Of a stretch of 64,000 bases of DNA, positions 1-44,380 are shown piece by piece. Under the pieces are notes generated by a model. The model was not told the origin of the DNA, searched no databases, and saw only the letters and a program-made list of their open reading frames with translations. Source of the stretch: a virus; the IMG/VR virus record IMGVR_UViG_3300022723_000207, positions 1 through 64,000 of that record. One strand, given 5' to 3'. The translations under genes and the position numbers were made by a program. Within the stretch, counting starts at the first letter, position 1; every line of letters begins with the position of its first letter.

Positions 1-315
1 TACATCATCTACTTCTACTTCAAGTGATTCTTCACTGAGTAGTCTGAGCACATCTAGTTCTAGTAGTGATGATACTTCTAGTTCTAGCTCAAGTAATACT
101 CCTTCTACATCATCTACTTCTACTTCAAGTGATTCTTCACTGAGTAGTCTGAGCACATCTAGTTCTAGTAGTGATGATACTTCTAGTTCTAGCTCAAGTA
201 ATACTCCTTCTACATCATCTACTTCTACTTCAAGTGATTCTTCACTGAGTAGTCTGAGCACATCTAGTTCTAGTAGTGATGATACTTCTAGTTCTAGCTC
301 AAGTAATACTCCTTC
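1..315 (+). repeat. Three exact 105-bp (35-codon) tandem copies within the Ser-rich gene
   Basis: tacatcatctacttctacttcaagtgattc restarts at 1, 106 and 211; a fourth copy starts at 316 and diverges. Confidence 0.9.
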
Positions 316-3300
316 TACATCATCTACTTCTACTTCATCTGACAGCAGCTTAAGTTCTCAAAGTACTAGCAGCTCAAGCAGCTCTAATACCCCTTCAACA
401 TCTTCTTCACAATCTAGCCTGAGTACTAGCTCAAGTTCCAGCAATACTCCATCCACATCTTCAAGTTCTACTTCAAGTGATTCTTCTTTAAGTAGCTTGA
501 GCACTAGTTCTAGTTCAAGTAATACTCCGTCTACAAGCAGTTCTTCGTCATCCCCATCTAGCCTGAGCACTAGTTCTAGTTCAAGTAGCTCTAATACTCC
601 ATCTACCAGCTCTAGTTCATCTTCACCATCTAGTTTGAGCACTAGCTCTAGCTCAAGTAATACTCCATCTACATCGTCCACGTCTACCTCTAGCAGCTCT
701 TCTCAGAGTAGCCTAAGCACATCTAGTTCAAGTAGCTCTAATACCCCGTCTACTTCATCTAGCACAATTTCAAGTGGGTCAAGTAGTTCTAGCTCCAGCA
801 ATACTCTATCTAGCTCGACTTCTAGCGATGATGATAGCTCAACCTCGACTTTTAGTTCAAGTAGCTCTAATACTCCATCTAGTTTAAGCAGCTCTAGCTC
901 CAGCAATACTCCATCCACATCTTCAAGTTCTACTTCAAGTGATTCTTCATTAAGCAGTCTGAGCACCAGCAGCTCTAGCTCCAGCAATACTCCATCCACA
1001 TCTTCTACTTCAAGTGATTCTTCATTAAGCAGTCTGAGCACCAGCAGCTCTAGCTCCAGCAATACTCCATCCACATCTTCTACTTCAAGTGATTCTTCAC
1101 TGAGTAGTCTGAGCACCAGCAGCTCTAGCTCCAGCAATACTCCTTCTACAAGTTCTAGTTCTAGTTCTACTTCAAGTGATTCATCTCAGAGTAGCTCAAG
1201 TAGCTCTAACACCCCTTCTAGTTCATCATCTAGTGATGACGACAGTTCTAGTTCTACTTCTAGCTCAAGTAGCTCTAACACCCCGTCCACATCTTCTAGT
1301 TCTATTTCAAGTGATTCTTCTTTAAGTAGCCTGAGCACCAGCAGCTCCAGCAATACTCCATCCACATCTTCAAGTTCTACTTCAAGTGATTCTTCGCTAA
1401 GTAGTTTGAGTACTAGTAGCTCAAGCAGCTCTAACACTCCATCTACAAGCAGCTCAACTTCTTCTGATTCAAGTGTTAGCAGCAGCTCTAGCTCCAGCAA
1501 TACCCCATCAACCTCATCCTCTAGCAGCACACCAAGTTCTCAGAGTGATGTTCAGAGCGAGTCTACTTCTAGCTCCAGCAATACTCCATCTACTAGTTCT
1601 ACTTCTATTTCAAGTGATTCTTCTCAGAGTAGCCTGAGCATTAGTAGTTCTAGCTCCAGCAATACTCCATCTACTAGTTCTACTTCTATTTCAAGTGATT
1701 CTTCTCAGAGTAGCCTGAGCATTAGTAGTTCTAGCTCCAGCAATACTCCATCTACAAGCAGCTCCTCTTCAAGAAGTTCAGTAAGCACTTCTAGTTCTAG
1801 TTCAAGTAATACTCCATCTTCAAGTTCTACTTCTTCGACAAGTAGTGAATCTGGCGCAAGTGAATCGACTTCTAGCACTGCGTCTACAGCATCTTCGATT
1901 AGTAGCAACAGCTCGTTATCAACAAGCAGCACCGACTCTACCGCATCTGAATCATCAGAGTCGATGTCGTCAGCTTCTGAATCGTCAGAGTCTGAATCGT
2001 CGTTGTCAGAATCTAGTTTGTCGATTAGTTCTATTAGTTCATTATCAACTCAATCCGACTCTACCGCATCTGAATCATCAGAGTCGATGTCGTCAGCTTC
2101 TGAATCGTCAGAGTCTGAATCTACCGTGTCAGCCTTATCGATTAGCTCTATCTCAACAGGCTCTTCTAGCTCTTCGACTTCACTGTCTTCTGTTAGCACA
2201 TCAAGCAGCAGCTCTAACACCCCATCTACTAGCAGTACATCAAGCAGCAGCTCTAACACACCCAGTTCAAGTAGCTCCTCTAGCTCTACCTTCTCGTCGC
2301 CTACTAACTCATTTAGTAGCATTTCATCAAGTAGTAGCTCTAACACTCCATCGACAAGTAGCAGCTCAAGCTCTAGTGGATCCAGCAGTAGCTCGCCCTC
2401 TAGTAATACTCCATCGACAAGCAGCTCTGGTACATCTTCGTCAAGCAGCCCTACGTCTCAGTCTGAGTCTAGCGAATCTGAATCGACTGCTTCAGAATCA
2501 ACAGTATCTGCATCATCTATAAGTTCTGTTTCGACAAGCTCTTCCAGCTCGCCAACTTCTGTTTCTGAGTCTAGCTTCTCTGAGTCAACCGCTTCTGAGT
2601 CAACTGTTAGCGCTTCTAGTGTTTCGTCTGTGTCAACACTATCTTCAGAAAGTAGCTCAAGCTCAAGTTCTAATACTCCTTCTTCTATTAGCTCTCTTAC
2701 TACCAGTGTTTCTTCAGAGTCAAGCTCAAGTTCTAATACTCCTTCTTCTATTAGCACGTCAAGTTCTACTTATTCATCTCCCACTAACTCGTTTAGTAGC
2801 GCTAGCTCTTCTAGCTCTAGCAATACCCCAAGCAGCTTAAGTAGTACTTCATCAACATCATCTACTGCTACATCTCAAACCAGTGGGTCATCAACTTCCA
2901 CATCTTCTGAATCAGCATCTACACAATCTGATTCCACTGAGTCAGAGTCGACAAATTCTGAATCAACTGTCAGCGCATCATCTATAAGCTCGGTTTCTAC
3001 AAGCTCATCAAGTTCACCTACTAGTCAGTCATTATCCACTGATTCTGATTCTACTGTTTCAGAGTCAACAAATTCAGAATCTACAGTTTCAGCTTCGACT
3101 ATTAGCTCTATCTCTACTGGGTCATCTGACAGTACGTCAAGCGGCAGCTCTAACACCCCATCCACTAGTACCTCTGCATCTCCAAGCAGTACTTCAAGTA
3201 CATCAAGCTCTTCTTATTCATCTCCTACCAACTCGCTAAGCTCATCGTCATCTAGCAATACTGAGTCTAGCACCAGTTCTTCATCTTATTCGTCTCCTAC

Positions 3301-3919
3301 AAATTCAGAATCTTCTTCTACAAGCCAGACTTCGCCAACAACCCAGTCTGAGACATCAGTCTCTGAGTCTACTGTTTCCGAATCGTCTGTGTCTGACACG
3401 TCGGTTTCTACTTTAAGCACTACTAGCAGCAGCACCCCATCAACTCAATCTGACTCGACGGAATCAGAAACCTCGGTGTCAGAATCTACGGTGTCAGAAT
3501 CCACTGTCTCTGACTCCACAGCTACATCAGTTACGACTTCATCGTCTAGTGAGTCGCAGTCTAGCGCTTCTTCGGATAGCACGTCTCAGACTAGCATATC
3601 TTCTGAGTCATCGACGAGTAGCGCCGTTGGTTCCAGTTCTAGTACTAGTGCACCATTCTCTCAAAGCTCTGCATCTAGCTCTAGTAATACGCCTAGCTCT
3701 CAGACAAGCTTGTCGTCTGAGTCTTCTTCAAGCTCTGGTGCTCCTGGATCTAGCCTTAGTAGCTTAACAACAGGTTCAACTGATACTTCATTAAGTAGTG
3801 AAAGCAGCAGTAGTTCTGTAAGTTCTGTCAGTTCTGAGAGCAGTGAGTCTTCGCCAAATGTTTCATCATCATCGTCCAGTTTTGTGGAAGATGATATTGC
3901 GTTTGGATTCTTATTTTAG
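2..3919 (+). CDS. Giant serine-rich repeat protein (5' partial), probable glycosylated surface/virion protein
   Basis: Frame 2 has no stop from nt 2 to TAG at 3917-3919, so the track start at 497 is internal. Mostly Ser/Thr with recurring SSSNTPST and SESTVS units; ends FVEDDIAFGFLF. Confidence 0.85.
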   Translation, partial: TSSTSTSSDSSLSSLSTSSSSSDDTSSSSSSNTPSTSSTSTSSDSSLSSLSTSSSSSDDTSSSSSSNTPSTSSTSTSSDSSLSSLSTSSSSSDDTSSSSSSNTPSTSSTSTSSDSSLSSQSTSSSSSSNTPSTSSSQSSLSTSSSSSNTPSTSSSSTSSDSSLSSLSTSSSSSNTPSTSSSSSSPSSLSTSSSSSSSNTPSTSSSSSSPSSLSTSSSSSNTPSTSSTSTSSSSSQSSLSTSSSSSSNTPSTSSSTISSGSSSSSSSNTLSSSTSSDDDSSTSTFSSSSSNTPSSLSSSSSSNTPSTSSSSTSSDSSLSSLSTSSSSSSNTPSTSSTSSDSSLSSLSTSSSSSSNTPSTSSTSSDSSLSSLSTSSSSSSNTPSTSSSSSSTSSDSSQSSSSSSNTPSSSSSSDDDSSSSTSSSSSSNTPSTSSSSISSDSSLSSLSTSSSSNTPSTSSSSTSSDSSLSSLSTSSSSSSNTPSTSSSTSSDSSVSSSSSSSNTPSTSSSSSTPSSQSDVQSESTSSSSNTPSTSSTSISSDSSQSSLSISSSSSSNTPSTSSTSISSDSSQSSLSISSSSSSNTPSTSSSSSRSSVSTSSSSSSNTPSSSSTSSTSSESGASESTSSTASTASSISSNSSLSTSSTDSTASESSESMSSASESSESESSLSESSLSISSISSLSTQSDSTASESSESMSSASESSESESTVSALSISSISTGSSSSSTSLSSVSTSSSSSNTPSTSSTSSSSSNTPSSSSSSSSTFSSPTNSFSSISSSSSSNTPSTSSSSSSSGSSSSSPSSNTPSTSSSGTSSSSSPTSQSESSESESTASESTVSASSISSVSTSSSSSPTSVSESSFSESTASESTVSASSVSSVSTLSSESSSSSSSNTPSSISSLTTSVSSESSSSSNTPSSISTSSSTYSSPTNSFSSASSSSSSNTPSSLSSTSSTSSTATSQTSGSSTSTSSESASTQSDSTESESTNSESTVSASSISSVSTSSSSSPTSQSLSTDSDSTVSESTNSESTVSASTISSISTGSSDSTSSGSSNTPSTSTSASPSSTSSTSSSSYSSPTNSLSSSSSSNTESSTSSSSYSSPTNSESSSTSQTSPTTQSETSVSESTVSESSVSDTSVSTLSTTSSSTPSTQSDSTESETSVSESTVSESTVSDSTATSVTTSSSSESQSSASSDSTSQTSISSESSTSSAVGSSSSTSAPFSQSSASSSSNTPSSQTSLSSESSSSSGAPGSSLSSLTTGSTDTSLSSESSSSSVSSVSSESSESSPNVSSSSSSFVEDDIAFGFLF
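1568..1754 (+). repeat. 81-bp tandem duplication within the Ser-rich gene
   Basis: tctagctccagcaatactccatctactagttctacttctatttcaagtgattc occurs at about 1568 and 1649, with a third partial start at about 1730. Confidence 0.8.
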
Positions 3920-4581
3920 CGGAATCTGGCAGTTACTCTGCCATACCAATTAACTGACATATGTTCATTACCAAGATGAATACACGCAGCTTTCTTAATT
4001 CTACCGCGTTGCTCATCTGGCCATTGCCTTAAGAACATTCTGTCTGATCTGCCGCAATGATCGTATCTTTCGGAGTACCAATTGGTTCTTCCCATTAAGA
4101 TATCGCAATTGAAATTCACTAATTGAAAAAAACCAACACCAATAGCTTTATAATTGCGTTGATGTTCCCATTCTGAAACAATATCAGGATTTCTGAGATA
4201 TTTCATCCATCCCTTGTAGTCAGGACACATGAACCTTGATGTTCCGTAAATGCACTGATCATTTAAATTCTTTTTCTCTAAAACCTGTCTAAGATCTGGG
4301 GCCATTATCATGTCAGCATCAGTAATCAAAACCCAATCTTTTTTCTCTAGAGCAGCAATACCATCATTGATTGCTTTACCCTTGTTGAATCTATCGCCAT
4401 TTTCATAAAGTCTATCTGTAAACACATGCTTGACTTTATGTTTCTCACATACCTTGATGGTTTCTTGATCTTTAGCAACTGTTACAACAACGATATTATC
4501 GAAATGGCGTTTGTTGTTATCTAAGGTGAGATCTAAAAAATCACCATAGTCAACGCACACCATGACGCATTCTAGGAACAT
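3916..4581 (-). CDS. GT-A fold glycosyltransferase (GT2-like)
   Basis: FNKGKAINDG, WVLITDAD (DxD), GVGFFQL and GRSDRMF motifs. Confidence 0.8.
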   Translation of the reverse strand: MFLECVMVCVDYGDFLDLTLDNNKRHFDNIVVVTVAKDQETIKVCEKHKVKHVFTDRLYENGDRFNKGKAINDGIAALEKKDWVLITDADMIMAPDLRQVLEKKNLNDQCIYGTSRFMCPDYKGWMKYLRNPDIVSEWEHQRNYKAIGVGFFQLVNFNCDILMGRTNWYSERYDHCGRSDRMFLRQWPDEQRGRIKKAACIHLGNEHMSVNWYGRVTARFR

Positions 4582-5090
4582 TTATAGACTCCGACCCCAG
4601 TGCGACCATTAAAGGAAGCCACTAGCTCGTATCCTTTGCTTTCTAAATAAAGTCGTGATTTATGGCCAGACCTTTTTCTCCAATCATGAATCATAATATG
4701 GCCGCCATCTTTAAGAAGCCTTTCGCTGAATTCGCAAGCATCATGACGGTGAAGCCCATCGCCACCCGGCGGGTATCCGGCACTAGAATCCACAAATACT
4801 AAATCATACTTAATGTTATCTGGGATTCCATACCAATCTGTTTTGACGATTGTAATATCTTCTAAATGATCGATCACATCCTTTATCGAAGGCACCCAAT
4901 GTTCCATGCACACATACTTTGATGGGCTAATAGCAGTAGCAATAGCCCAAGTAGTGGGACCAGCGCCAAATTCAAGAATGTTAGCGCCTTCAGCGACGTT
5001 GTTTTTGCACCAGTCGTGCATGAATTCCAACTCTGGAATAGTTGGCGATACTCTGGTTACGGTAAATGTTTTAGGTAGAGCTGGATTCAT
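4572..5090 (-). CDS. Class I SAM-dependent methyltransferase
   Basis: ILEFGAGPTT motif I, YDLVFVDS, GGHIMIHDW; ATG at 5090 preferred as start. Confidence 0.8.
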   Translation of the reverse strand: MNPALPKTFTVTRVSPTIPELEFMHDWCKNNVAEGANILEFGAGPTTWAIATAISPSKYVCMEHWVPSIKDVIDHLEDITIVKTDWYGIPDNIKYDLVFVDSSAGYPPGGDGLHRHDACEFSERLLKDGGHIMIHDWRKRSGHKSRLYLESKGYELVASFNGRTGVGVYKCS

Positions 5091-5931
5091 GGTGTCTCTC
5101 AACAAGATTGATTAGAGTTTTGGCCATTCCATAAGGTGAGAAATGGTCAAAATAAAGCTGCCGAGAAGCCTGGGCATACGGCTTTGGGTCGATATCTCTT
5201 AATTTAGCCATATCCTCTGGTTTCTCTAGTTTTACGTAGTGAACACCAGCCTTCATCGGAAATGGATAAAAAGGATCGTAGTTTAGCGCTAAAGGTATAC
5301 CGCAAGATGAGAATTCGCACTCTCTTCTATTCTTCTCCGCGCCTTTCTTACCCTTTAAGATAATGCCCCACTTGCACTCTTTAAGTCTATCTAAATAAGA
5401 GTCTAAAGTGTCGTTTACTAAATAAGCACCGCTAGAGTAGAAGTCGTCCTGAGACTCACACCAATCAACCCATGGTTGGCGGCCAAACCGATTATTTTTA
5501 CCAGTTACGGTGCCATGCCACTTATGGTTTTTATCTTCCCATTTGAAATATTCTAATTGGAAATCTTTAGTCGGCATAACTGTCCATGCAGTGACAGGGA
5601 TGCCGGTATCCTTTGTAAATTCATCCCAGAACTTGCACGGATGGTACTGAATTTTAATTAGTAATTTGATATCTTTATAAGTGTCCTTGAAAAACCCATG
5701 TCCATGAAAATGAGCACTTGGGCTTAGAGTATCCCAGGTATCAAGACCTACTCTTATGCCATTAACCTCGATAGTGCACCAGTTAGAATTTCTGGCGCCG
5801 TCTACTCTAGCATATGGAAAGATGGTGGTGCTAACATCGAATACTTTGCTAGCAGCAAGCATGCGACATAGCGTCCAATTCCATCCATTAAGACGCTCGT
5901 ATCCTTCTGATAGGACTAACTTATTACGCAT
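5071..5931 (-). CDS. Putative GT-B glycosyltransferase-like protein
   Basis: C-terminal YLDRLKECKWGIIL...NRRECEFSSCGIP...GVHYV resembles the GT-B nucleotide-sugar domain; lies in the glycan cluster. Confidence 0.55.
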   Translation of the reverse strand: MRNKLVLSEGYERLNGWNWTLCRMLAASKVFDVSTTIFPYARVDGARNSNWCTIEVNGIRVGLDTWDTLSPSAHFHGHGFFKDTYKDIKLLIKIQYHPCKFWDEFTKDTGIPVTAWTVMPTKDFQLEYFKWEDKNHKWHGTVTGKNNRFGRQPWVDWCESQDDFYSSGAYLVNDTLDSYLDRLKECKWGIILKGKKGAEKNRRECEFSSCGIPLALNYDPFYPFPMKAGVHYVKLEKPEDMAKLRDIDPKPYAQASRQLYFDHFSPYGMAKTLINLVERHHESSST

Positions 5932-7501
5932 GTTGAACTTGGCTTACGACTTCTCTTAGTTTATCGATATTTGTTTGGTTTCCGCATCCAGTCTTTTTAA
6001 ATGAGTGCCAGCACCATTTACGGTCTGGAAGTCTTTCTGCCATGTACCACAAGTAAGTGTCGTGACTCGGAACGGGCAGTCTCTTACCGGCTGCCTCTGC
6101 TGCCTCCTTGGTGAATTCAGTATTATGCAGACAAACAAAGGAGGCTATGCGACGATGGCCATATCTTTTAGACGCTTCAGCTTCTGGTCTTTGCTCTTCA
6201 GAAAGATAAGCATCGCCATCAATATCAGCATTGAACGCCCAGTCATCTAGATCGCAAATCCAACGTCCAGGTTTTGTGTATTTCCACTTATGGCCGGCCA
6301 AATCATACTCGAAGAAATGATCTAGAATGATGTCTTGGTCATTGTAGAAATAAGCATCAGCGTCAATCTTAAGCCAATAGGGCGTGTCAACTTCATTAGG
6401 TGCACCCAAGACAAAAGCTGAAAGCATAAGTTCTCTTAAACTATCGGATTCTGGCATGTCCCAAGCCACCAATTTAACATTTCGTCCTGTCACTTCATGA
6501 ATGAAAGCCAATTCATTAACTGGATCACTAAACCCGTTATGGAATACTACCATTGGGCAGTCTTTGAGTTGTGGTTTCTTTTGCCACGTTGGCAAAGTAA
6601 TTTTTAGCTTCTCTAGATATGGTGGATTAATTGCGGTGACAATAGTAATCCTCTTGTCTGTGACCACTTTCTTAGGCGTGAAATTCTTGAATTTACGATA
6701 CATACGATCAATTGGTGAATCACTAATACTGAGATAGTTCTCTTTTTGCGCTTCTTCATATTCTTCAATCCATAAATCGCCGTGGTATAATACTTCGCCT
6801 TCATCATTTAGGCGGCAGTGTTTTCTACCATGATAATGAATTATTCTGGCGTCATCACCACGAGGGTTGCTGTATTTACAAGAAATGTTGAATTTTTGGT
6901 CACAAACGTAGTGTGGATATTGATGTAAGACAACCTGCATTCCAGTCTCGTCTGGAATGAAATTATGCCTTCCAGGTTTGATGTCGTTGCACCAATTGAC
7001 TGCAAACTTAGCATTTTTTTTAAATGCGAACACGCCACAATTCACTGCTGGGCCAAAATTAAGCGCTGGCTCCATTAGGTCAGGATAGGCTTCTTTCCAG
7101 CCATTAATGCGCCTTTGAATGGCTCTGGTGTTAGTGGTCCATTTAGTAAATTGCGGGACTATAAAATCATGCTTTTCAGCATATTCAAACAACTCATCAA
7201 TGGGGCCTCTAACTAAAGTATCTGCGTCCAAAAATACTGACAACTCGTATGGTGTCCAAGCATTGACTGATGCTTTTTTAAGGTATACGTCATTTTTACC
7301 ATCTAGCGATTTATCAAATGATGCTTCAACAATGTTGACAAATGTTCCGCCGAACAATCGCTTACAAAGTGCATGAGAATCAGCACCACTTGAGATTACT
7401 GTGATAGGTCCGTCATAATACTTTCTGAGGCTATGAATCGATACAATTAACCGGAGCAAGCACTTGGAGCCCTGGTTGAAATAAATTACGCCTTTGCCCA
7501 T
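5924..7501 (-). CDS. Two-domain GT-A glycosyltransferase (GT8-like N-terminal domain plus second DxD domain)
   Basis: SVFLDADTLV, VNCGVFAF, DETGMQ, IIHYHGRK; second domain YWLKIDADA; ATG at 7501 preferred. Confidence 0.8.
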   Translation of the reverse strand: MGKGVIYFNQGSKCLLRLIVSIHSLRKYYDGPITVISSGADSHALCKRLFGGTFVNIVEASFDKSLDGKNDVYLKKASVNAWTPYELSVFLDADTLVRGPIDELFEYAEKHDFIVPQFTKWTTNTRAIQRRINGWKEAYPDLMEPALNFGPAVNCGVFAFKKNAKFAVNWCNDIKPGRHNFIPDETGMQVVLHQYPHYVCDQKFNISCKYSNPRGDDARIIHYHGRKHCRLNDEGEVLYHGDLWIEEYEEAQKENYLSISDSPIDRMYRKFKNFTPKKVVTDKRITIVTAINPPYLEKLKITLPTWQKKPQLKDCPMVVFHNGFSDPVNELAFIHEVTGRNVKLVAWDMPESDSLRELMLSAFVLGAPNEVDTPYWLKIDADAYFYNDQDIILDHFFEYDLAGHKWKYTKPGRWICDLDDWAFNADIDGDAYLSEEQRPEAEASKRYGHRRIASFVCLHNTEFTKEAAEAAGKRLPVPSHDTYLWYMAERLPDRKWCWHSFKKTGCGNQTNIDKLREVVSQVQHA

Positions 7502-7551
7502 AGTAATATATACTTCAAAGCATTTGGACAAAAATAATCAAAGAGGCCATT

Positions 7552-7992
7552 ATGTCTTTCATTGACCAACTACATTTTAGACTTCTAGAAGAAGATTCAG
7601 CATGCCCTTGCAAGATGTTCTGGTGTGTTCCAACACCAACTGACAGCAATGATATAAGCTGGGATGTTATGTCATTCGACTCTGATAGTGATGATTTAAG
7701 TAATTGGCTAATTATTCTGCATAGACTTAAAAAGGATTGGAAAAAAGACTTTGATGTTTGCAAGGGCAGTCACTCTGGCCTTCCTAGAGGGATATTGGTT
7801 GATGGTCATCTTTATCATGGCAATAACCTGCCTCCAACATTAGACCTACCAACTGTAGCCTCCAAAATGGGTGGAAGCCTTGGCAGAGATATTACACCAG
7901 TCTATAGTTCTAACTATGGAATAAACCAAGAAGACCTTGCTAGAATTGAAGAATTAATAGGTCAAGAATTGGGTTTGCAATACACAGATTAA
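7552..7992 (+). CDS. Hypothetical protein
   Basis: 146-aa ORF with GAGG RBS and upstream AAAATA motif. Confidence 0.65.
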   Translation: MSFIDQLHFRLLEEDSACPCKMFWCVPTPTDSNDISWDVMSFDSDSDDLSNWLIILHRLKKDWKKDFDVCKGSHSGLPRGILVDGHLYHGNNLPPTLDLPTVASKMGGSLGRDITPVYSSNYGINQEDLARIEELIGQELGLQYTD

Positions 7993-8058
7993 CGATTTAA
8001 CAAATTCCATACTTGACAAAAATGCCTCCTCTACTATTTTCATAAAGGAGGCCATACC

Positions 8059-8238
8059 GTGACTAACAATAAAGTTAAACAAATTTGTAGTGAAATATTC
8101 GATGATTATGACATTTTAAATGCCACGTTAGATGGTAAGGACGTGGTTCTTAAGATGAAACCTAAAAAATTAAGAAAGAGCTTTTCTAAAGTAGTCGATA
8201 GTGCCCTTGAGCCCATCCCTAAGCTTAATTTTGGGTGA
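8059..8238 (+). CDS. Small hypothetical protein (59 aa, not in ORF track)
   Basis: AAAGGAGG at 8044-8051, GTG at 8059, reads [18 protein letters not shown]...KLNFG, TGA at 8236-8238. Confidence 0.55.
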
Positions 8239-9124
8239 CCAGTCTAAGTCTCTTTGAGACTTGCTGATATCCGGCTTCCGGCGTTTAGGATCGTCTCTAG
8301 GAAGATCCTGCCAAACAATCTTTGAATTAGATCCGGTCATCTCAATGATGATTTCGGCCAATTCCAACATGGTATACTCATCTGGATTTCCAATATTGTA
8401 TGGTTCGTGATACTTAGGCCATTCGGCAGATTTGCAATTCATTAATTTTATCATTCCGTCAATTAAATCATCGACATATTGAAATGACCTTGACTGTTTG
8501 CCATCACCATACATAGTAATATCTTGGTCTTGCAATGCTTGTGCGATGAAATTACTAACTACACGCCCATCGTCAACATCCATGTTTGGACCATAAGTAT
8601 TGAAAATGCGAACTACTCTTACATCTATCCCAAATTGCCTGGCATAATCATAGCACAGGGTTTCTGCGACGCGTTTTCCTTCATCATAGCAAGATCTAAT
8701 ACCTATCGGATTAACGTTGCCCCAATATGACTCCGACTGCGGGTGCTCAGATGGATCACCATAGATCTCAGATGTAGACGCTTGCAGTATTTTAGCGCCA
8801 GTTTCTTTGGCTAAATCTAAAGTTTGAATCATTCCAAGAACATTGGTTTTAATAGTAAAAACTGGGTCTCTTTGGTAGTGTGGCGGGCTGGCTGGGCATG
8901 CCAGATTGTAGATCTGATCTAATCTGCTGCAGAAATTGATTGGTTTAGAAACATCAGCAACCAATAGATGGAAGTTGTAGTGGCATTTAAATTGGCTTAT
9001 GTTTACGTTAGATCCTGTATAAAAATTGTCAATACAGAAAACTTCATGACCTTCATCAAGTAGTTTCTGGCATAAATGACTACCAATAAATCCGGCCCCG
9101 CCAGTCACAAGAATTAATTCTCAT
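8170..9124 (-). pseudogene. uxs: UDP-glucuronate decarboxylase (UDP-xylose synthase), frameshifted after codon 3 in this sequence
   Basis: [45 protein letters not shown]. Native ATG at 9124 has a GGAG RBS and reads MRI-LVTGG only if the duplicated AATT (9112-9115) is removed. Confidence 0.8.
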
Positions 9125-10243: not shown

Positions 10244-12925
10244 CTACGGCACGTTGGTTATGTAATTTGTAGCATCCATGTTAACCAACGTGCCGTTTAC
10301 ACTTCCAACAGCATCAAAAACAGTAGTAGCACTGTCTCCTTCACCCATTCTCCACCAAGTGAAAATATCATTTAGAGTGGAATGTTCGCTTGGGTCTATA
10401 AGATTGCCACTGTTATATAAATCTGATATTTCTTGGTTGGTTATCACTCTATTCCAAATCATCATTTCGCTGATGTAGCAATCTGAATGCCTGATATTAT
10501 TAGAAAATGCCCCCATTACCAAATCTGATGAATTTGTTATAGAGCCTATAGTTGTTCCAGTGTAGGTGGCACTAAATTGAACTCCATCAGACCATATCTC
10601 AATATTTGAGATATCACCATCACCGTTGTAAGTTATTACAAAATGATACCAAGTATCTTCAGAGATTACAGGACCAGAAGCTATTACTTCTGTGGTGCCG
10701 TTTGCAAATCTGACTTCTAAAGCTTCGGAGCTATCTTCAATTAATATAGCATATCCAGTGGCCGCACCGCCGTTATCATTCTTTTTAACTAATATACCAG
10801 AATTTAATGTAGGCAGTGTTTGAACATTGAGGTAAAATGCTACTGTAAACGGAGTGCTGGATGTAAGTGGAAGTGAATTTCCAAAGTTAATATATTCATC
10901 AGCACCATTAAATGATGTTGATAATGTGTTCGCTATCTGCCCATCAATGGCATCGTCTAAGGTTTGAGCAGCATCACCAAATCTTCTATCCAAAACTTCA
11001 ACATTTGAAGTTTCTGATTCATCTAATATAAGAAGTCTATCTGGACCATTGGTGATTTGACTTTGTTCGCTGGCAGGAAAACTTGTTCTATCTAAGATAT
11101 ATCTGTGCAAAATTGTTATTTCTTCTGGATCGTCTTCTTCTGGGTCTTCTTCTGTTTTCTTAAACACTCTAGAACAGTCTACTTTAAGTCTTGGAACCCT
11201 AATTCCGTAAAAATTAGGATTATATATATCTGGTATTATCCCACCGCCAAATATTTCAAAAACTTCGTCTGCCACTAAACCATTATTGACAGAATTAGTA
11301 AATCTTCTGGCCATCAAATCACATGTACCACCGCCACTTGATTCTGAACTTGAACTGTCTTCTAAAAGAGAAAAAGCTTCCCATTCCTCACAAGTGAATT
11401 TAAACCATTGATCGCATGTAAAGGTATCCCAATCTGGATACCCAGCAGATGATGTACTATTAGTTGATTGACTTTCTATATCACTTGAGCTAGATGTGCT
11501 TATTGATGACGTACTAGAACTGAAACTGGAATCAGAACTAGAACTTGCACTTGAATCAGAACTCGTACTGCTGGTGGTACTGCTGCTATTATCATCAAAT
11601 AGGCTGGCAAGATTAATACCTTGAATTACATAATCATTTGGCTGGAAAGTAGCATTGACATCAGTTCCAGTAGATTCATCTATGTTTGTTATGCTTATAT
11701 CATCGGTGTCAGTAAGATTGGCTATAAAACCGCCAGAGCGGCCAGCATATAACACTGGTGCACCACCCTGGGTACCTCTATTGTAAAAACCAAAACTGCC
11801 GTATTGTTGACTAGTTCCGTTTACTTCCCACACCCAGTGAGGAACTAATCTGGATCCACTTGTTCCAGTTCTATCTGAGTAGAATGTTGACAGAAACAAA
11901 TAATCGCCTGTTTTATTAACTTGAATATTTTCAGTATTTGTTACTGTCGAATGTGTAAAACTAGCAGAATCAACTTCAACATTAGTATCCCAAGTTATGT
12001 CTGCATTAGTATCAATTCTTTGGCCACCGCCAGTTTCTCTTAGCCTTACAAACTCAGCAAAGTCATTTAACTTAACCGCTGTAAATCCAGTTGAATCGCT
12101 TAAAATGTTGGCGGTAGCAAAAGTGTCTCTAATCGCCTGAAGTCTTAAAATCTGGCCAGCAGTGGCTTCAATAATGATGAATAAGTTAGCACAACCAGTA
12201 TTGCAACCATTGTTGCCACGCATATACGCAGTTACTTCTGAACCATTAACTTGCGTGCCATCTAGCGTAAGACGTATTTTGGCACCAACTCTAGTTCCAG
12301 AAGAACCAGTATCGAACATTACGTTGGAACAGACCATATAGTGGCCTGTTTGGTTTAGTGTAATATTGCCAGAAGATTGGGTAAATGATCCAGAGTCTAC
12401 TTCGTCTTGAACATTCCAAGTTACATCAGTATATGTTGTTGCTACTGATTGATTAGCAGAATTCCTTATCCTTAGATAATCCCAGTTATCATTTAATTTT
12501 AATAATTGAAGACCGCATTCATTAGCGCGCCTTTGAACAGTTGCTGAGTTACTGTCAGTCCTAATTGCATTAACAATTAAGTCATTGCCAGCAGTAGCAT
12601 TGATAATGGTGGCACTGGACAAAAAACATTCATCTGTGCCGCCAGATCTTCTGATGTAACCAGTAGATCTGCCGTAAGCTAAGTTGACGCCATTTAGATT
12701 AAGTCTAGACTGGATCTCACTTCTGTTAGATCCACTAGCGCTTTGTAAACCTAGGTTGGTTATTACTAAATAATGGCCGCTTTCGCCAAGATCAACGTTG
12801 GTGCCGGTCCTAGTATAAATAGCATCTTGTCTAACATTGGTATCCCAAGTTTGATTAGTTTGGGTTGTGCCAATGGTCTCTAAGCCAGCGGCTTCTCTAT
12901 AAATTGCAATATCGCCAGCGGCCAT
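10244..12925 (-). CDS. Virion adhesin-like protein: three C1q/BclA-like repeats, Ser-rich linker, C-terminal LamG/concanavalin-A domain
   Basis: Three repeated W..(VDS.SFT)..GxYLV units; SSSTTSSTSSDSS linker; FNGADEYI...WYHFVITYNG...ISEMMIWNRVIT LamG signature. Confidence 0.7.
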   Translation of the reverse strand: MAAGDIAIYREAAGLETIGTTQTNQTWDTNVRQDAIYTRTGTNVDLGESGHYLVITNLGLQSASGSNRSEIQSRLNLNGVNLAYGRSTGYIRRSGGTDECFLSSATIINATAGNDLIVNAIRTDSNSATVQRRANECGLQLLKLNDNWDYLRIRNSANQSVATTYTDVTWNVQDEVDSGSFTQSSGNITLNQTGHYMVCSNVMFDTGSSGTRVGAKIRLTLDGTQVNGSEVTAYMRGNNGCNTGCANLFIIIEATAGQILRLQAIRDTFATANILSDSTGFTAVKLNDFAEFVRLRETGGGQRIDTNADITWDTNVEVDSASFTHSTVTNTENIQVNKTGDYLFLSTFYSDRTGTSGSRLVPHWVWEVNGTSQQYGSFGFYNRGTQGGAPVLYAGRSGGFIANLTDTDDISITNIDESTGTDVNATFQPNDYVIQGINLASLFDDNSSSTTSSTSSDSSASSSSDSSFSSSTSSISTSSSSDIESQSTNSTSSAGYPDWDTFTCDQWFKFTCEEWEAFSLLEDSSSSESSGGGTCDLMARRFTNSVNNGLVADEVFEIFGGGIIPDIYNPNFYGIRVPRLKVDCSRVFKKTEEDPEEDDPEEITILHRYILDRTSFPASEQSQITNGPDRLLILDESETSNVEVLDRRFGDAAQTLDDAIDGQIANTLSTSFNGADEYINFGNSLPLTSSTPFTVAFYLNVQTLPTLNSGILVKKNDNGGAATGYAILIEDSSEALEVRFANGTTEVIASGPVISEDTWYHFVITYNGDGDISNIEIWSDGVQFSATYTGTTIGSITNSSDLVMGAFSNNIRHSDCYISEMMIWNRVITNQEISDLYNSGNLIDPSEHSTLNDIFTWWRMGEGDSATTVFDAVGSVNGTLVNMDATNYITNVP

Positions 12926-12940
12926 AAATTAACTTTTACG

Positions 12941-13621: not shown

Positions 13622-13629
13622 GGTGTCTC

Positions 13630-18645: not shown

Positions 18646-18846
18646 CTAATAAGTTTTATGCTGGGGTCGCACAATGTCGTTTAATGATAGTTCTCCATTA
18701 TTAATTTTGTTCAATATTGTTTCGATTTCATTTTCTAATGCTATTCTTTGAGTGTTTAAATTTTCAATTTTAATTCTTTCTGTATTATGTGACATCTTTA
18801 AATGTACAGTAAATAATTTGTCAATGCAGTTACCTAATGTGTCCAT
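18646..18846 (-). CDS. DUF4254-like protein, C-terminal half
   Basis: MDTLGNCIDKL...NLNTQRIALENEI...QHKTY; ATG at 18846 with GAGG RBS inside the upstream endonuclease gene. Confidence 0.6.
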   Translation of the reverse strand: MDTLGNCIDKLFTVHLKMSHNTERIKIENLNTQRIALENEIETILNKINNGELSLNDIVRPQHKTY

Positions 18847-38923: not shown

Positions 38924-39447
38924 GCTTTACTATACCAGATTTTGTTGACTATCCTGAGCTTTATAATGTTAGCGATAACCTTAAATTATTTAAGGGTGTT
39001 TTTGTATATGTCATCGAGCCTTATCCTGTAAAAGGTTATAGTTTATATATTGGCTTTAGGGAAGATTATAGCTTTTTCAGAATTGCTGATTTTAAGTCTA
39101 AGGAAATTGGTAAAGATGATTTAGATCAGCAGTCTCAAACTGTATTAGCCTGGTCTGCATTATTGAAAGAAGTGATGAAGTCAGCGCGAGTTACTGATGC
39201 CCTGTTTTATTTTTCGGCAGGAAAAGATTTAAGGTTAGTGGATGTCATGATGTCAGCCAATAAATTTCTTGGACCAGGTATGTTAAAAGACTTGTTTGCT
39301 AGTGTTGTGCCTACTCAAGAGGTAATAACTCATGTTGTTTTAGATGATGAAGAAATATCTAAATACAAAGGTAAGATAGTGAAGCCTAGTAGGTTCAGGT
39401 ATCTTACTGAAGAAGGATTAGTCAGGCCACAATACGGAATTATATAG
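38920..39447 (+). CDS. Hypothetical protein
   Basis: ATGA overlap; 175 aa. Confidence 0.6.
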   Translation: MSFTIPDFVDYPELYNVSDNLKLFKGVFVYVIEPYPVKGYSLYIGFREDYSFFRIADFKSKEIGKDDLDQQSQTVLAWSALLKEVMKSARVTDALFYFSAGKDLRLVDVMMSANKFLGPGMLKDLFASVVPTQEVITHVVLDDEEISKYKGKIVKPSRFRYLTEEGLVRPQYGII

Positions 39448-42329
39448 TGCAATATTTGTTTAGGAACATTAAGGGACATACGGTTAAGTTGCCAGGGCGT
39501 GATGGCAAGCTGGTACATTTCGCAGTTGGTGAGCAGAAAGCTTTGGATTCTTATTTTAAGAAGTATGCTCCAAAGTATTTGGCGGTTGTTAGGGAAGTTA
39601 AGGGTAAGGCAGTAAATGTCAGCAATCAGAGAGTACGTGTAGTAAAGCCCAAGACTAAAAAAACTAGTGAACCTAAAAAAGTACTGATAACACGTAAAGC
39701 AGCCAATTCTACTATTACTGTCGACAATGGCAGAAGGGTTATAAAGACTTCGAAAGTTGTCGGCAGGGCGTCTAAAATAGGGCGCAAGAATGCCACTGCT
39801 TTTTCCCAAGCCAGGATTACGGAAAATTCTGTTCCAATCTCTAATGATATTGGTGTTGGTATACTAAGTTTTAATCGTTTAAAATCACTAATACCACTTA
39901 TTGAATCTATTCGTAAATATACAGATTTAAAAAAGACAACTATTTTTGTTAGCGATGAAAGTACAAATCCAGAAGTATGGAATTGGCTTAAAGAACAAAA
40001 GGACATTGTAGTTTTTCATGAAGAACGCAAGGGAATCGCTGTTAACACTAACAGGATTTTGAGATGCCTTGCTCGTTTTAAGTATAAATTGCTCCTTAAT
40101 GATGATGTTGAAGTATTAAAGGAGGGCTGGGATTCTTTTTATTTTGAAGCAATGAAAAAAACCGGTTTGAAACATTTTTGCTATCGGCAGCGAGGGATTT
40201 ATGGAGCTGAAAGACCTAGAGCTGATTCAAAAGGTCTCTTAAAGATCGTAGAGAAGCCTCATGGTGCTGTATTGGCAGTTCATGATGATGCATTTAGAGA
40301 AGTTGGTTATTTCGATGAGGGATTTGGCACTTATGGATTTGAACACGTAGAATATAGTGATCGCATAGCCAGAGTCTGTCATAAAGAAGATGGTTATTTT
40401 GATGTAAGCGGGTCTGACTCTTATTTTAGAATTTACGATGATACTTCAAGTGATCCAGAAAAGCACAGAAATTATGCCAAAGCCAAAAAACGGTATGCCG
40501 AAACCCCTAAAAATAGGAAATTTGTTGATACTACTGATAATTCTGCAGTTCCTGGAATTACTTATATTATCCCTTTTAGGGATATTGGTCGGCAAGAGTG
40601 CGTTAGGACAGTGGTAAACAATATCAAAGCTCAGCGCTACCCTGAAATTCAAATTATTTTAGCCGAACAAGATGAGCGTTTAAAGACTAGCTTTAGCTGT
40701 ATTGATCATATATTAGTTAAGAGCTGGTTTAAAGGTATGCACTTTTGTAAGGCGGCAGCATTTAATAGAGGTGTTGAGGTTGCGAAATTTGATAAGCTGA
40801 TTTTACATGATGCGGATATGTTGGTTAGGTCTGACTATACGCACAATCTGTCTATATTATTAACAAAGTATGAGTCGGCCCATATAGGTGCCACTGTTTG
40901 TTATATGGAGAAAGAGTCTACTGATAAGATTGTTCGTAATCAGTCTATTAATAGAGATCAAGTGTCTAGTGATAGAATTGTTAATTATTACGAAGGAGGG
41001 TCTTTTGGTATTTTGAAATCTGCCTACATTAGAATAGGTGGATTCTGTGAAGATTTCATAGGTTATGGGTGTTTCACTGAAAATAATTATGTGGTTACTT
41101 CTGACGGTTTGGTTGACATTAAAGATGTTCAAGTAGATGACTATGTTTTAACACATACTGGTGAATACCATGCAGTAACCAGAAAGTTCATTAGAAATCA
41201 TGGTGGTGAAGTACATGACATCTTCATCCCTGGGAGATTGCCAATAAAAGGAGTGACTGAAGAACATCCATTCTTGGTTGACGGCGAATGGATTAGGGTT
41301 GATGATCTAAAAATCGGCATGAAATCAACATTTCAACCAGATTATTTAGACCTAGTTCAATATCAAGACCTTAGTTATATTTCTAATGCTGACAATTCAA
41401 AAAATGAAATAAATATTGATTTTTACTCAAAAGAATTTTCATGGTTTGTTGGAGTGTTTTTGGCTGAAGGAGTTGTTAAATTAAACAAAGCGGTATACTT
41501 GTACATCGCAGAAGACGAATCATGCTTATTGTCAAGAATATTAGACATGATTAACAAAATAAACCCGATGATCTCAGTTAAATCTCATTATGTTAAAAAT
41601 GGGTGTAGGGAAGTAAGAATATTTAGTTCAAAATTGGCTAAAATAATTAATGCTGTTTCACCAAAATCAATTGCAAGAAACAAAGTGCTAGCCAAATGGT
41701 ATATTGAAAAGTTGAACACCAATTCTAAGCTATGGCTCCTTAATGGTTTGATAGATGGTGATGGCGATAAGCAACATGGATCCAAAAAAAGGTTAGTTTA
41801 TACGACTGGTAGTATAAACCTAGCTAACATTATATCGATGATGATGGGCGAATCTGGCATAACACATAGCTTTGGAATAAGAAAAACTGGTGGTTTTACA
41901 GAAAATGATTATTATTCATTAACAATAAATAGAAATTGTGAAAGATTTTTAGATGTTGTTGGCATGATAAAAGAAGATGTCGTAAGTCATGACTCAAATT
42001 TTGGGCACATAAATGAAATAAGAAAAAGACTGGTTAATGAGCCTGTTTACAATTTAGAAGTAGAATGCGATAATTCATATATAGTTAATGGTGTGGTTGT
42101 TCATAATTGTGAAGACACAGAGTTTTATAAGAGGATGACCGAAGGAACAAAGAGTTTTACGCAGAGGTCTGTTGATCTGTTTCATTTGTGGCATGGTCGC
42201 ACTGATGGCTGGACTGAACGCCATGACATTAATAAGAATATTCAAGTTAAAATGTTTAAAGAGAATCAAGTTTCTTTGTACAAGAGACTAAATAAGTTTT
42301 TGCTGAATAAGTATGAAGGATTAAAGTGA
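39447..42329 (+). CDS. Double glycosyltransferase (GT2 plus GT2/GT7-like galactosyltransferase domain) containing an intein
   Basis: LLLNDD, VGYFDEGFGTYGFEH; second domain YIIPFRD, FCKAAAFNRG, ILHDAD, IGGFCEDFIGYG|CED, HLWH. Confidence 0.88.
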   Translation: MQYLFRNIKGHTVKLPGRDGKLVHFAVGEQKALDSYFKKYAPKYLAVVREVKGKAVNVSNQRVRVVKPKTKKTSEPKKVLITRKAANSTITVDNGRRVIKTSKVVGRASKIGRKNATAFSQARITENSVPISNDIGVGILSFNRLKSLIPLIESIRKYTDLKKTTIFVSDESTNPEVWNWLKEQKDIVVFHEERKGIAVNTNRILRCLARFKYKLLLNDDVEVLKEGWDSFYFEAMKKTGLKHFCYRQRGIYGAERPRADSKGLLKIVEKPHGAVLAVHDDAFREVGYFDEGFGTYGFEHVEYSDRIARVCHKEDGYFDVSGSDSYFRIYDDTSSDPEKHRNYAKAKKRYAETPKNRKFVDTTDNSAVPGITYIIPFRDIGRQECVRTVVNNIKAQRYPEIQIILAEQDERLKTSFSCIDHILVKSWFKGMHFCKAAAFNRGVEVAKFDKLILHDADMLVRSDYTHNLSILLTKYESAHIGATVCYMEKESTDKIVRNQSINRDQVSSDRIVNYYEGGSFGILKSAYIRIGGFCEDFIGYGCFTENNYVVTSDGLVDIKDVQVDDYVLTHTGEYHAVTRKFIRNHGGEVHDIFIPGRLPIKGVTEEHPFLVDGEWIRVDDLKIGMKSTFQPDYLDLVQYQDLSYISNADNSKNEINIDFYSKEFSWFVGVFLAEGVVKLNKAVYLYIAEDESCLLSRILDMINKINPMISVKSHYVKNGCREVRIFSSKLAKIINAVSPKSIARNKVLAKWYIEKLNTNSKLWLLNGLIDGDGDKQHGSKKRLVYTTGSINLANIISMMMGESGITHSFGIRKTGGFTENDYYSLTINRNCERFLDVVGMIKEDVVSHDSNFGHINEIRKRLVNEPVYNLEVECDNSYIVNGVVVHNCEDTEFYKRMTEGTKSFTQRSVDLFHLWHGRTDGWTERHDINKNIQVKMFKENQVSLYKRLNKFLLNKYEGLK
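41070..42107 (+). mobile_element. Intein (346 aa) with LAGLIDADG endonuclease
   Basis: Starts CFTENNYVVT; block B VTEEHPF; FVGVFLAEG and LLNGLIDGDG; ends VYNLEVECDNSYIVNGVVVHN, followed by +1 Cys. Confidence 0.93.
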
Positions 42330-43340
42330 CTTGATTTTTTCTATTAGTGATTGTTCATTTTTGAATTCATCTTCCCAAATTTCGATTAGCATATAATTAG
42401 TATTGCTATTGACAAATGACCTTTTTCTTTTGTCTCTTGCTATTACTTCTGGTTTTGTATGCCAATAATTACCTTGAACTTCTATTAAAATATTATTGTT
42501 TGGTAAGAAATAATCAAAATGCCAAAATTTAATTAAGTGTTCTTCTTTCCATTCAATGTTTAATAAATTGAATATTGGTATTAGTTTTCTTTGTAGTTTA
42601 GATGGCTGTGGACTCCAAAAAGCTGTGTTAGCCATATGTTCTCTATAATCGTCGTTTGCCCATAGTTCTATCATTAGTTGTCTATTGAATTCTCTTTTTT
42701 CTTTTGTCATAATTTTGGATTTTAGTTTTCTGTGTTCTGCAGATTGCATTATAGATAATAATTTTTCTCTAAAGTCTGGTTTTCCCCACATTTTAGAAGA
42801 TCGTTTTGAACGCTGTTCAAATGATTCGTTATTGCCTAATTCCTTGTTTTCCCTTTCTAACAATGATGAGACTACTTTATTTCTAAAGTCAGTGTCTCTC
42901 CACAATCCAGATATTATTGATGATGCCAGCTCATGAGATTCTGGTTTAGACCAATATTCTTTAGAAGCTAATATTGATTTTTGTAGTACTTTTTCAGAAT
43001 GTTCAAAACACTTTTTGTGTTTAACTCTGTGTAACTTTTTTAGCAAATCATTAGCACCTCTATATTGGATCTCTACTTGTTTCTTGCACTTAATGCATTT
43101 GCATATTACCGGATTTCGCATTCTGATATTAGTGTAATCATATCCGTATTTGTTTTTGGTGGTGCTCCATAGAACGTTAGGAGCGGTTTTTAATGTTTTA
43201 ATTCTGTTCTGCAGCTTGTTTTCAGCTAAGGAACAATTGCGACATGTGAATCCATTATTTTGTGCTTTCTTGATCGCTCTTCTGTCTTTTAGTGTAAATA
43301 ATTCGTTGCATTTTTTGCATGGTGTTGTTAAAGAATCCAT
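42321..43340 (-). mobile_element. Free-standing Vsr/DUF559-type putative homing endonuclease with Zn fingers and helical repeats
   Basis: CxxC motifs, repeated W..P.FR.K units, PSKLQ...FDYFLP..ILIEVQGNYWH...RDKRK...IEIWE; AT-rich and antisense to the operon. Confidence 0.8.
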
Positions 43341-43385
43341 GCATTACTTTTGGTTGTGTGGTTTCACTAACACAAGGAGAGGGCC

Positions 43386-44380
43386 ATGAAGGTTCTTATC
43401 ACTCGACCGCAAGGTGGAGCTTTTTTTTTTTTTTTTTCATAACCAAGGGTTTTCTAAACGCTTTTAATGATATCGGGGTTGAAGCAAAATATTGGGATGG
43501 TGATCAAAAGTCGTGGTTCGATTTTGATCCTGACCTGTATTGCGGAGCCAGTGGCCACAGACAAAACATTCCGTTAAATCGAGGGAAATGTAAAGTTGCT
43601 GTTCATGTCAACCCGTTTGGAGTCCAATTAAAACCTTTGTTTGGTGTTGATATCAATGAGCCAAGACATGCTATCGATTGGACCGCTAAGCAGAAACCGG
43701 ATGCCGTATTTGGTTATGGTTTACAACAAGATGCTAAAACTTATTGGAAAAATTGGTCTGATATAGCACCATTTGTGGGGTGTCCAACTGCTGGTGATGT
43801 TACTGAGTATTATCCTCAAAAAGAAGATTGTGATTATAAAGTTGCTTTTTTAGGTGGTAGGTGGGGTTATAAAGGTCACAATATTAATAAGTGGTTGCTG
43901 CCGTCGATTTATAAACTAGGAAATAAGATAGCGATTAAAGGATGGGGTGGTTGGCAAGAAGTCAAGCAATATCATGGAGTTCTACCAGAGAGTGATAGTG
44001 GAAGAGTATTTTTAAGCTCTGCTTTAGTGGGTCCATGTGTTTGTGAACCGCATACGTCTGATTATGGCATAGATATCCCTGAACGATTTTTTAAGGTTGC
44101 TTTGTGTGGCGCTTTACCAATTATGGATAATGTTGTTGGGTTTGATCGATATTGTGATAATTATGTAATGGCGAGTAACCCAAATGATTATTATACTAAA
44201 ATTTTAAATTATTCTTCCAATCCTGATTATATTGAGGAGGGTAAAAGGCTAGCGGCTAAAATTAGGGAAGAAGTATTGAAAAAGCACACTTATCATCATC
44301 GCATGCGCGATTTATGCTTGGCAGTTGGGTTTGATGATATTGCTAAAAGATTTGATGAAAGAATAGCTAAATTCGATTAG
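43386..44380 (+). pseudogene. GT-B glycosyltransferase (CgeB-like) frameshifted at a T17 tract
   Basis: AAGGAG plus ATG at 43386 gives MKVLITRPQGGA, then T17 (43421-43437) leads to a stop. The body (ITKGFLNAF, VAFLGGRW, ERFFKVALCG, HTYHHR) is in another frame. Confidence 0.75.

Follow-up and report, generated by a model that had tools for sequence, protein, structure and literature searches.

Introduction

In the serine-rich repeat protein (SRRP) and SD-repeat systems of Gram-positive bacteria (GtfA/GtfB, Gtf3/GtfC, GlyE and SdgA/SdgB), long Ser-rich proteins are encoded beside cytoplasmic glycosyltransferases (GTs) of the GT-B fold and of the GT8/GT2 GT-A type, which build O-glycans on them stepwise. 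Virus-encoded, host-independent cytoplasmic glycosylation of virion surface proteins, involving methylated sugars and xylose, is known from giant viruses of eukaryotic hosts, namely, from chloroviruses, which encode A064R-type GT-GT-methyltransferase proteins and carry N-linked glycans, and from the fibrils of mimiviruses. Among phages, the only precedent that we found is the glycosylation of capsid and tail-tube proteins in the mycobacteriophages Che8, Corndog and Myrna (Freeman et al. 2023, Cell Host Microbe, cited in PMC12619734); in full-text literature searches, pairs of a Ser-repeat protein and GTs were not reported for any phage. Here we describe such a pairing in the first 64,000 bases (hereafter, the window) of the phage record IMGVR_UViG_3300022723_000207 from IMG/VR, a linear fragment of 153,184 bp with a CheckV completeness of 42%, in which a Ser/Thr-repeat open reading frame (ORF) of at least 1305 codons (2–3919, plus strand) converges on a GT operon (7531–3916, minus strand), with a gene for UDP-glucuronate decarboxylase, that is, UDP-xylose synthase (UXS; 8170–9108, minus strand), close by.

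As proposed here, the locus would share with the mycobacteriophage systems, as these are presented in PMC12619734, soluble GTs of phage origin that are believed to modify structural proteins of the same phage while still in the cytoplasm, with the glycans serving as a surface shield. By contrast, in the mycobacteriophages it is capsid and tail-tube subunits that are modified, at short C-terminal stretches, according to the same source, whereas the candidate Ser tracts considered here extend over hundreds to more than 1300 residues of fibre-, neck- or adhesin-type proteins; furthermore, the GT family is a different one, has a UXS attached to it and is known here by comparative linkage. The arrangement of a long Ser-rich protein beside GT-B and GT8/GT2-like GT-A enzymes parallels the Gram-positive loci, from which it differs in its phage setting, in the lack of an LPXTG anchor and in that neither a GtfA/GtfB pair nor SecA2/SecY2 was found in Pfam and NCBIfam scans of the window. 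Glycosylation of bacterial SRR adhesins and of mycobacteriophage virions offers the closer functional analogies, rather than the animal proteoglycan pathway. To these, the present case adds a conserved five-gene module with UXS, an extreme tract length, linkage statistics for this GT family and an intein. Based on gene order, predicted folds and comparative genomics, we propose, with a probability of about 0.5, that the enzymes of the operon attach O-glycans to Ser tracts in appendage proteins of the phage, and that these glycans are likely to include xylose and methylated sugars.

A Ser/Thr-repeat gene convergent with a glycosyltransferase operon

The frame 2–3919 is open over 1305 codons, compared to 19–217 stops in each of the other five frames, and is truncated at its 5′ end by the start of the contig. 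Its product is acidic and almost devoid of basic residues, consisting of 59% Ser, 14.5% Thr, 3.8% Pro and 6.5% Asp plus Glu; Arg occurs once, and Lys, His, Cys and Trp are absent. The hexapeptide SSNTPS occurs 32 times and is written by 21 different 18-mers in which TCN and AGY Ser codons are mixed; hence, selection has acted on the peptide and not on a DNA repeat. Perfect DNA repeats are also present: the contig starts inside 3.2 copies of a 105-bp tandem unit (1–337), and an 81-bp unit is repeated 2.3 times with 100% identity at 1567–1755. Such identical tandem copies imply recent expansion, and the length of the Ser stalk probably varies across the phage population. Because the contig starts in perfect repeats and a second, independent assembly, the only other contig with the adjoining GT2 gene, also breaks inside the Ser repeats, the loss of the N-terminus is technical. 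The only non-repeat part of the ORF is a 14-residue C-terminal tail ending in AFGFLF; a convergent Ser-rich ORF with the identical terminal AFGFLF is found at the equivalent position in the closest relative (L083/L084), the contigs of which also end there. The TAG of the Ser-rich ORF (3917–3919) overlaps the TAA of the minus-strand GT2 gene (complement of 3916–3918), and the initial annotation of the window, which had described a Ser/Thr-repeat gene of more than 1300 codons abutting a GT operon stop to stop, was accurate in this respect.

Read from 7531 to 3916, the operon encodes a tandem GT-A glycosyltransferase (5924–7531, the true start being probably at 7501), a compact GT-B-fold glycosyltransferase of 286 aa (5071–5931), a small S-adenosylmethionine-methyltransferase-like protein (4572–5105) and a GT2-family GT-A glycosyltransferase (3916–4581), all on the minus strand. 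A 146-aa protein without a family match (u146; 7552–7992, plus strand) is encoded divergently from the tandem GT here and in all close relatives.

The AlphaFold model of the tandem GT (pLDDT 92) comprises two GT-A domains, with DxD motifs at D102/D104 and D390/D392; the motif is invariant in both halves, and D102/D104 are unchanged across 23 homologues. Residues 9–275 adopt the GT8 fold, as judged by matches to LgtC (Z 20.1, rmsd 3.1, 233 aligned residues), glycogenin (Z 19.5) and pneumococcal GlyE (Z 18.4). The protein has no Pfam match, including to the GT8 family PF01501; nevertheless, the profile of its homologues matches glycogenin with an E-value of 2e-5 over ~70 positions, and one homologue (P0036) bears a precomputed PF01501 match. 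The C-terminal domain profile yielded chance matches only among PDB sequences, and the language-model features of this domain are GT8/GT6/GT77-like (atlas neighbours GT8/GT6/Nucleotid_trans) rather than GT49-like. For the whole chain, the best Foldseek match is LARGE1 (E 8.5e-15), with both domains aligned and a TM-score of only 0.34, closely followed by other tandem GT-A enzymes, namely, K4CP, PmHS2, LH3 and WbbM. Mimivirus R699 is also a fold neighbour, and homologues in some other phages are fused to a Methyltransf_24/CmcI-type domain, resulting in a GT-GT-methyltransferase layout akin to that of chlorovirus A064R.

The predicted structure of the 286-aa GT-B protein (pLDDT 93) was matched by Foldseek to BGluT, SdgB, EXT1/2, GtfA and Gtf3 at E-values of ~1e-5, and its language-model neighbours are viral clusters of the Glyco_trans_1_2/GT90/RXYLT1_C type; it has no Pfam match, and its profile matched nothing among PDB sequences. 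The methyltransferase-like protein, which is kept in all close relatives, shows a weak match to Methyltransf_24 (E 0.009), whereas the GT2 protein scores just above the Pfam cut-off (26–27 bits). Consequently, the operon of GT-A, methyltransferase, GT-B and double GT8-like genes reported in the initial annotation is present, with the qualifications that the methyltransferase match is weak and that the GT8 fold has been assigned to the N-terminal half of the tandem enzyme. The UDP-xylose synthase reported beside it is equally genuine: residues 1–311 match human UXS1 over the full length with an E-value of 1e-113, compared to 7e-40 for the next family, UDP-glucose 4-epimerase. No hydrophobic or membrane-spanning segment is present in UXS or in any of the operon enzymes, which should, therefore, modify soluble cytoplasmic substrates. 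Comparison with PHROGs gave no further information on either the operon proteins or the Ser-rich proteins.

The GT repertoire of the phage extends beyond the operon. A paralogue of the GT2 protein (33% identity) is encoded at record positions 152268–152708, and paralogues of the GT-B protein (31–34% identity) together with three more GT2-type genes lie outside the window at 106176–106991, 117280–117945 and 143819–145139. Altogether, the 153-kb fragment encodes at least a dozen GT domains.

Conservation of the module and linkage to Ser-rich genes

Five relatives, with tandem GTs 49–73% identical to the one described here, keep the genes for u146, the tandem GT, the GT-B protein, the methyltransferase and GT2, as well as UXS within 1–7 kb, and UXS lies near the operon in all close relatives. 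Sequence identity across L083, L085, L087, L088 and L091 amounts to 44–56% for u146 and 43–63% for GT2. The closest relative (73% identity in the tandem GT) has the same operon and the convergent Ser-rich ORF; in L083, the tandem GT and GT-B genes are separated by an inserted gene for a DUF723 protein (11583–13586). In distant phages, the two GT-A halves always occur together, whether in one protein, as two separate genes or with their order swapped. The tandem-GT family has more than 400 metagenomic members. In IMG/VR, homologues were recovered by an alignment-based scan, whereas a scan with the single sequence produced no matches; not a single homologue was found among 50,697 GenBank phage records, so that none of the cultured phages covered by the search encodes a member of the family. 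Matches in metagenome-assembled genomes (MAGs) are spread over phyla that are not related to one another, probably represent phage contigs that were mis-binned and do not point to a host.

Throughout the comparison, an ORF of at least 100 aa was considered Ser/Thr-rich if it contained one 100-aa window with at least 60% Ser plus Thr. Such composition scans were preferred to DNA patterns, because a strict (WSN)15 pattern missed the Ser-rich ORF of the window, in which the runs are interrupted by Asn and Pro, and a looser pattern was noisy, with a reversed control scoring similarly. A Ser/Thr-rich ORF lies within 10 kb of the tandem-GT homologue in 16 of 27 IMG/VR loci, corresponding to 13 of 21 clusters at 70% identity, compared to none of 80 UXS-anchored viral control loci (1.09 Mb; Fisher p 2.5e-11); UXS alone is, accordingly, not linked to Ser-rich ORFs. 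The association is tighter still in 9 of the 21 clusters, where the distance does not exceed 2.1 kb; given the density of Ser-rich ORFs in the GT-bearing genomes (17 in 772 kb), this is expected for ~9% of clusters (binomial p 3.6e-5). Tight adjacency recurs among lineages that share only 29–45% identity. Two complete genomes, G003 (185 kb) and G012 (264 kb), each have a Ser-rich ORF (1108 and 903 aa, respectively) that ends ~0.9 kb upstream of the GT; just upstream of this ORF lies the largest Ser-rich ORF of the respective genome (1881 and 1546 aa). The pairing is also present in 3 of 12 MAG loci.

The Ser-rich neighbours of the GT that are complete combine a Ser/Thr stalk with other domains, namely, Laminin_G_3 (three domains), a T4 neck-protein domain, a head-completion domain, a weak match to BclA_C, DUF285 (ten repeats), a DUF5122 propeller or a six-bladed repeat head. 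All of these modules are of the virion or adhesin type.

Candidate glycosylation of virion appendages and alternative explanations

In the scheme that we propose, the four soluble enzymes of the operon, that is, the tandem GT8-like GT-A protein, the compact GT-B protein, the small methyltransferase and GT2, would glycosylate Ser/Thr tracts in the host cytoplasm, with the phage UXS supplying part of the sugar donor. The substrates would be the adjacent Ser-repeat protein of at least 1305 residues and proteins with shorter tracts, such as the neighbouring LamG fibre-like protein, and the products would be mucin-like stalks, partly methylated and possibly carrying xylose, on appendages of the virion (fibres, neck or whisker structures), where they might serve for shielding, spacing or adhesion. 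The fold neighbours of the operon enzymes include those that glycosylate Ser-rich repeat proteins, namely, GlyE, SdgB, GtfA and Gtf3. The initial annotation had envisaged a methylated and sulfated glycan brush on the phage's own Ser-rich proteins; the O-glycosylation part of this idea is strengthened by the linkage across 13 of 21 clusters against none of the controls and by the virion or adhesin-type domains of the partners, whereas sulfation and the proteoglycan chemistry are not supported.

Several observations weigh against this proposal. The fold matches to SRRP-modifying enzymes, at 9–18% identity, represent a generic GT-A/GT-B likeness. The available portion of the large Ser-rich ORF contains no globular domain, so that the product is assigned to the virion by analogy. 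UDP-glucose dehydrogenase was not found in the record, which covers 42% of the genome, and the substrate of UXS would, therefore, come from the host. No Ser-rich ORF lies nearby in 8 of the 21 viral clusters or in 9 of the 12 MAG loci, the link to UXS is limited to the close clade, and the 80 control loci were not matched for phage type. Finally, three of six close relatives (L085, L087 and L088) keep the operon and UXS and have no Ser-rich ORF within 10 kb. Independent distribution of the GTs and Ser-rich genes, named in the initial annotation as an outcome that would count against it, is thus half borne out within the close clade.

The alternative that survives best, unlikely as we consider it, is that the GTs remodel host envelope glycans (lipopolysaccharide, capsule, S-layer or surface glycoproteins), for example, to block superinfection, and that their proximity to Ser-rich genes results from a shared, fast-evolving fibre and accessory region. 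Serotype-changing phage GTs are well known, as cited in PMC12619734, half of the close relatives do without an adjacent Ser-rich ORF, and the FkbM, GT2 and sulfotransferase genes found elsewhere in the window are typical of polysaccharide clusters. On the other hand, none of the enzymes has a membrane segment, no flippase, polymerase or polyprenyl-phosphate transferase is among the window ORFs scanned against Pfam, and remodelling of the envelope would leave unexplained why the partners are specifically Ser/Thr-rich and located 0.9–2 kb away in nine independent lineages.

Somewhat less probable again is the possibility that the operon does glycosylate the Ser-rich protein, which, however, is not part of the virion and is released at lysis or forms an intracellular or extracellular matrix, acting as a decoy or slime. 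The lack of a virion domain in the 1305 available residues, and a candidate N-terminal domain that belongs to no known family (see below), would be compatible with such a role, whereas in other phages, Ser-rich proteins encoded beside the same GT bear neck, head-completion and fibre domains, and the LamG fibre-like protein of the record itself has a similar Ser tract.

In a further reading, which we hold to be just as improbable, the Ser tracts serve simply as flexible spacers or become phosphorylated, the GTs have another substrate and the linkage reflects a shared neighbourhood only. Low-complexity linkers are indeed common in fibre proteins and the linkage is incomplete; however, 59% Ser over more than 1300 residues far exceeds a linker, no Ser/Thr-rich ORF was present in the 1.09 Mb of control viral loci, and the close adjacency is repeated over lineages at 29–45% identity.

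Returning to glycosylation of the Ser stalks themselves, its most specific form, which we regard as unlikely, would cast the tandem GT as a LARGE-like alternating polymerase that is primed by the GT-B and GT2 proteins and converts UDP-xylose and UDP-glucuronate (UDP-GlcA) into long acidic repeat glycans, so that matriglycan-like phage ‘proteoglycan’ brushes would be a feature of the whole jumbo-phage group. LARGE1, the matriglycan polymerase, combines a GT8 xylosyltransferase with a GT49 glucuronyltransferase; the phage enzyme is likewise a tandem GT-A protein with a GT8-fold N-terminal domain, and the donors of LARGE1 are UDP-xylose and UDP-GlcA, the former being made from the latter by the product of the gene near the phage tandem GT. 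On the other hand, the C-terminal domain has no sequence match to a solved chain and, by its language-model features, looks GT8/GT6/GT77-like rather than GT49-like, and the TM-score is low.

The analogy with animal proteoglycans (Ser-O-Xyl-Gal) drawn in the initial annotation is not supported. A Ser-rich core protein, a UXS1-orthologous synthase and a sulfotransferase are indeed encoded in one genome; however, the animal pathway relies on XYLT (GT14), B4GALT7 (GT7), B3GALT6, B3GAT3 and sulfation, whereas the scanned ORFs of the phage yielded no GT14-type xylosyltransferase and no GT31 or GT43 signal, Ser-Gly acceptor motifs are lacking, the sole GT7 signal is a partial motif match in a gene located among replication genes, and the sulfotransferase is not co-conserved.

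That some or all of the GTs glycosylate phage DNA on hypermodified bases, for restriction evasion, is very improbable, being plausible only for the GT pair at 39–44 kb and not for the operon at 3.9–9.1 kb. In its favour, diverse GTs are known to glycosylate the DNA of phages (Pyle et al. 2024, cited in PMC12619734), an intein-bearing two-domain GT and a GT-B-type gene (39447–44380) lie among replication genes and a Mom-family DNA-modification gene is present at 52300–53730. Against it, no thymidylate-synthase-like hydroxymethylase was found in the record, and DNA glycosylation would leave unexplained why the tandem GT is linked to Ser-rich ORFs.

Should the operon indeed modify Ser tracts of appendage proteins, virion glycosylation would be widespread among jumbo phages in the environment rather than a curiosity of mycobacteriophages, with a bearing on the resistance of virions to proteases and defences, their sticking to surfaces or mucus and their recognition by hosts or grazers. 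The module of tandem GT-A, GT-B, methyltransferase, GT2 and UXS would, in addition, represent a compact, soluble and host-independent candidate O-glycosylation kit with a defined peptide acceptor, testable in Escherichia coli.

Other Ser-tract genes and the fibre region

The record carries four Ser-tract ORFs, three of which directly abut GT genes, whereas the fourth is located ~2.7 kb from the operon. The latter encodes the fibre-like protein of 893 aa (10244–12925, minus strand), which combines a Laminin_G_3 domain with a Ser tract of ~50 residues located internally; a homologous Ser-rich LamG-type protein is encoded directly upstream of the tandem GT in a distant phage (G012/L103). The two remaining ORFs lie outside the window, where they flank two GT2 genes of the opposite strand (record 149746–153184, corresponding to 3747–7185 of locus L130). 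One encodes a 538-aa protein with a 130-residue Ser linker (record 149746–151362), and the other (record 152724–153184) starts with an N-terminal domain of ~95–100 aa and runs off the 3′ end of the record into Ser repeats. This ORF may represent the lost N-terminus of the Ser-rich ORF of the window; the two ends of the record share no k-mer longer than 12, and closure of the genome into a circle through a single gene is not shown by overlap. The N-terminal domain belongs to no known family and has no matches in IMG/VR or among longer proteins; its only two homologues are both truncated and both run on into Ser repeats.

A tail-fibre module (13630–17186, minus strand) encodes a tail-fibre protein of 885 aa with DUF2793 as well as a DUF4376 protein. 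The entire fibre block (10244–17186; DUF2793, DUF4376 and LamG) lies between a DUF1016 gene and UXS in the window, is absent from the corresponding position in L083 (7386–9264), and the operon is inverted relative to DUF1016 in other relatives. The operon and fibre region is a rearrangement hotspot. A LAGLIDADG-type homing endonuclease is encoded near the fibre block (18830–19648), and homing endonucleases are scattered through the sugar gene clusters.

Two further sugar gene clusters

The initial annotation had assigned two more gene clusters to the same glycosylation pathway; only 3916–9108 is linked to Ser-rich genes, and no such tie was found for 24415–27719 or 39447–44380. The first of these encodes a methyltransferase with a weakly kinase-like N-terminal half, an FkbM methyltransferase, a GT2 protein and a sulfotransferase, the last three of which agree with the original assignments. 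In the remaining protein (24415–25554), annotated as a kinase-methyltransferase, the N-terminal half shows no more than a weak RIO1 match (E 0.003) and the methyltransferase half is weakly Hen1/type-12-like, so that the protein may serve in RNA repair or modification rather than in glycan synthesis. FkbM and GT2 are kept in L083 and L085, where they are found beside a volactin-like actin and an NAL1-type protease and not beside Ser-rich genes. The sulfotransferase is genuine (PF00685, E 1e-14, with an N-terminus resembling the loop that binds 3′-phosphoadenosine-5′-phosphosulfate, PAPS). Nevertheless, sulfation of the glycan on the Ser-rich protein is not supported, as the gene is missing from L083, from L085 (between the same neighbours in the latter) and from G001, and no adenosine-5′-phosphosulfate kinase or other PAPS-making gene was found in the record. 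At 21718–24418, a volactin-family actin homologue (E 2e-58) adjoins an NAL1/trypsin-like protease; relatives keep both genes, along with one for a chlamydial Hc1-like histone.

At 39447–44380, the GT2 protein, the GT7-like domain and the GT-B gene of the initial annotation were recovered, the GT7-like match being partial, whereas an intein and a homing endonuclease had been overlooked. The first gene (39447–42329, plus strand) encodes a two-domain GT-A protein with a GT2 domain followed by a GT2/GT7C-type domain, the latter with a partial match to Glyco_transf_7C (PF02709; 23.4 bits over 29 residues) that is cut by the intein. The intein itself (346 residues; DNA 41070–42107) includes a LAGLIDADG nuclease and is inserted exactly inside the GYG-x-ED catalytic motif, with the junctions GYG/C... 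and ...VVHN/CED and Pfam matches to Intein_splicing, PT-HINT and LAGLIDADG_3. The homologue in G001 (626 aa) lacks the intein and reads GYGVED straight through the site. The presence of an intein, unusual for a glycosyltransferase, suggests that this enzyme is strongly conserved in the phage population. The two-domain GT gene is followed by an HNH homing endonuclease gene (42321–43340), which is not a GT and lies between the two GT genes, and by a GT-B-type glycosyltransferase gene (Glyco_trans_1_2; 43319–44380, plus strand), which is located among replication genes and kept beside the two-domain GT in G001. For this pair, DNA modification is a fair alternative.

Genomic context

The window encodes a tail sheath, baseplate proteins (gp6/J-like and a V-like spike) and a gp15-like protein, as well as RecA, a DnaB-type helicase, a PolA fragment, a primase and a Mom-family protein. 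In view of this sheath, baseplate and replication gene content, the record is a fragment of an uncultured jumbo myovirus, the sheath protein of which is at most ~40% identical to that of any GenBank phage. A putative late-promoter word, CAAACGTAAT, showed no enrichment and was not positioned before the genes of the glycosylation module. Within the run of baseplate and tail genes, the Mom-family (DNA adenine modification) domain encoded at 52300–53730 is fused to two helix-turn-helix regions, and a protein with an ASH/HYDIN-type Ig-like domain is encoded between recA and the gene for the DnaB-type helicase (29880–30557).

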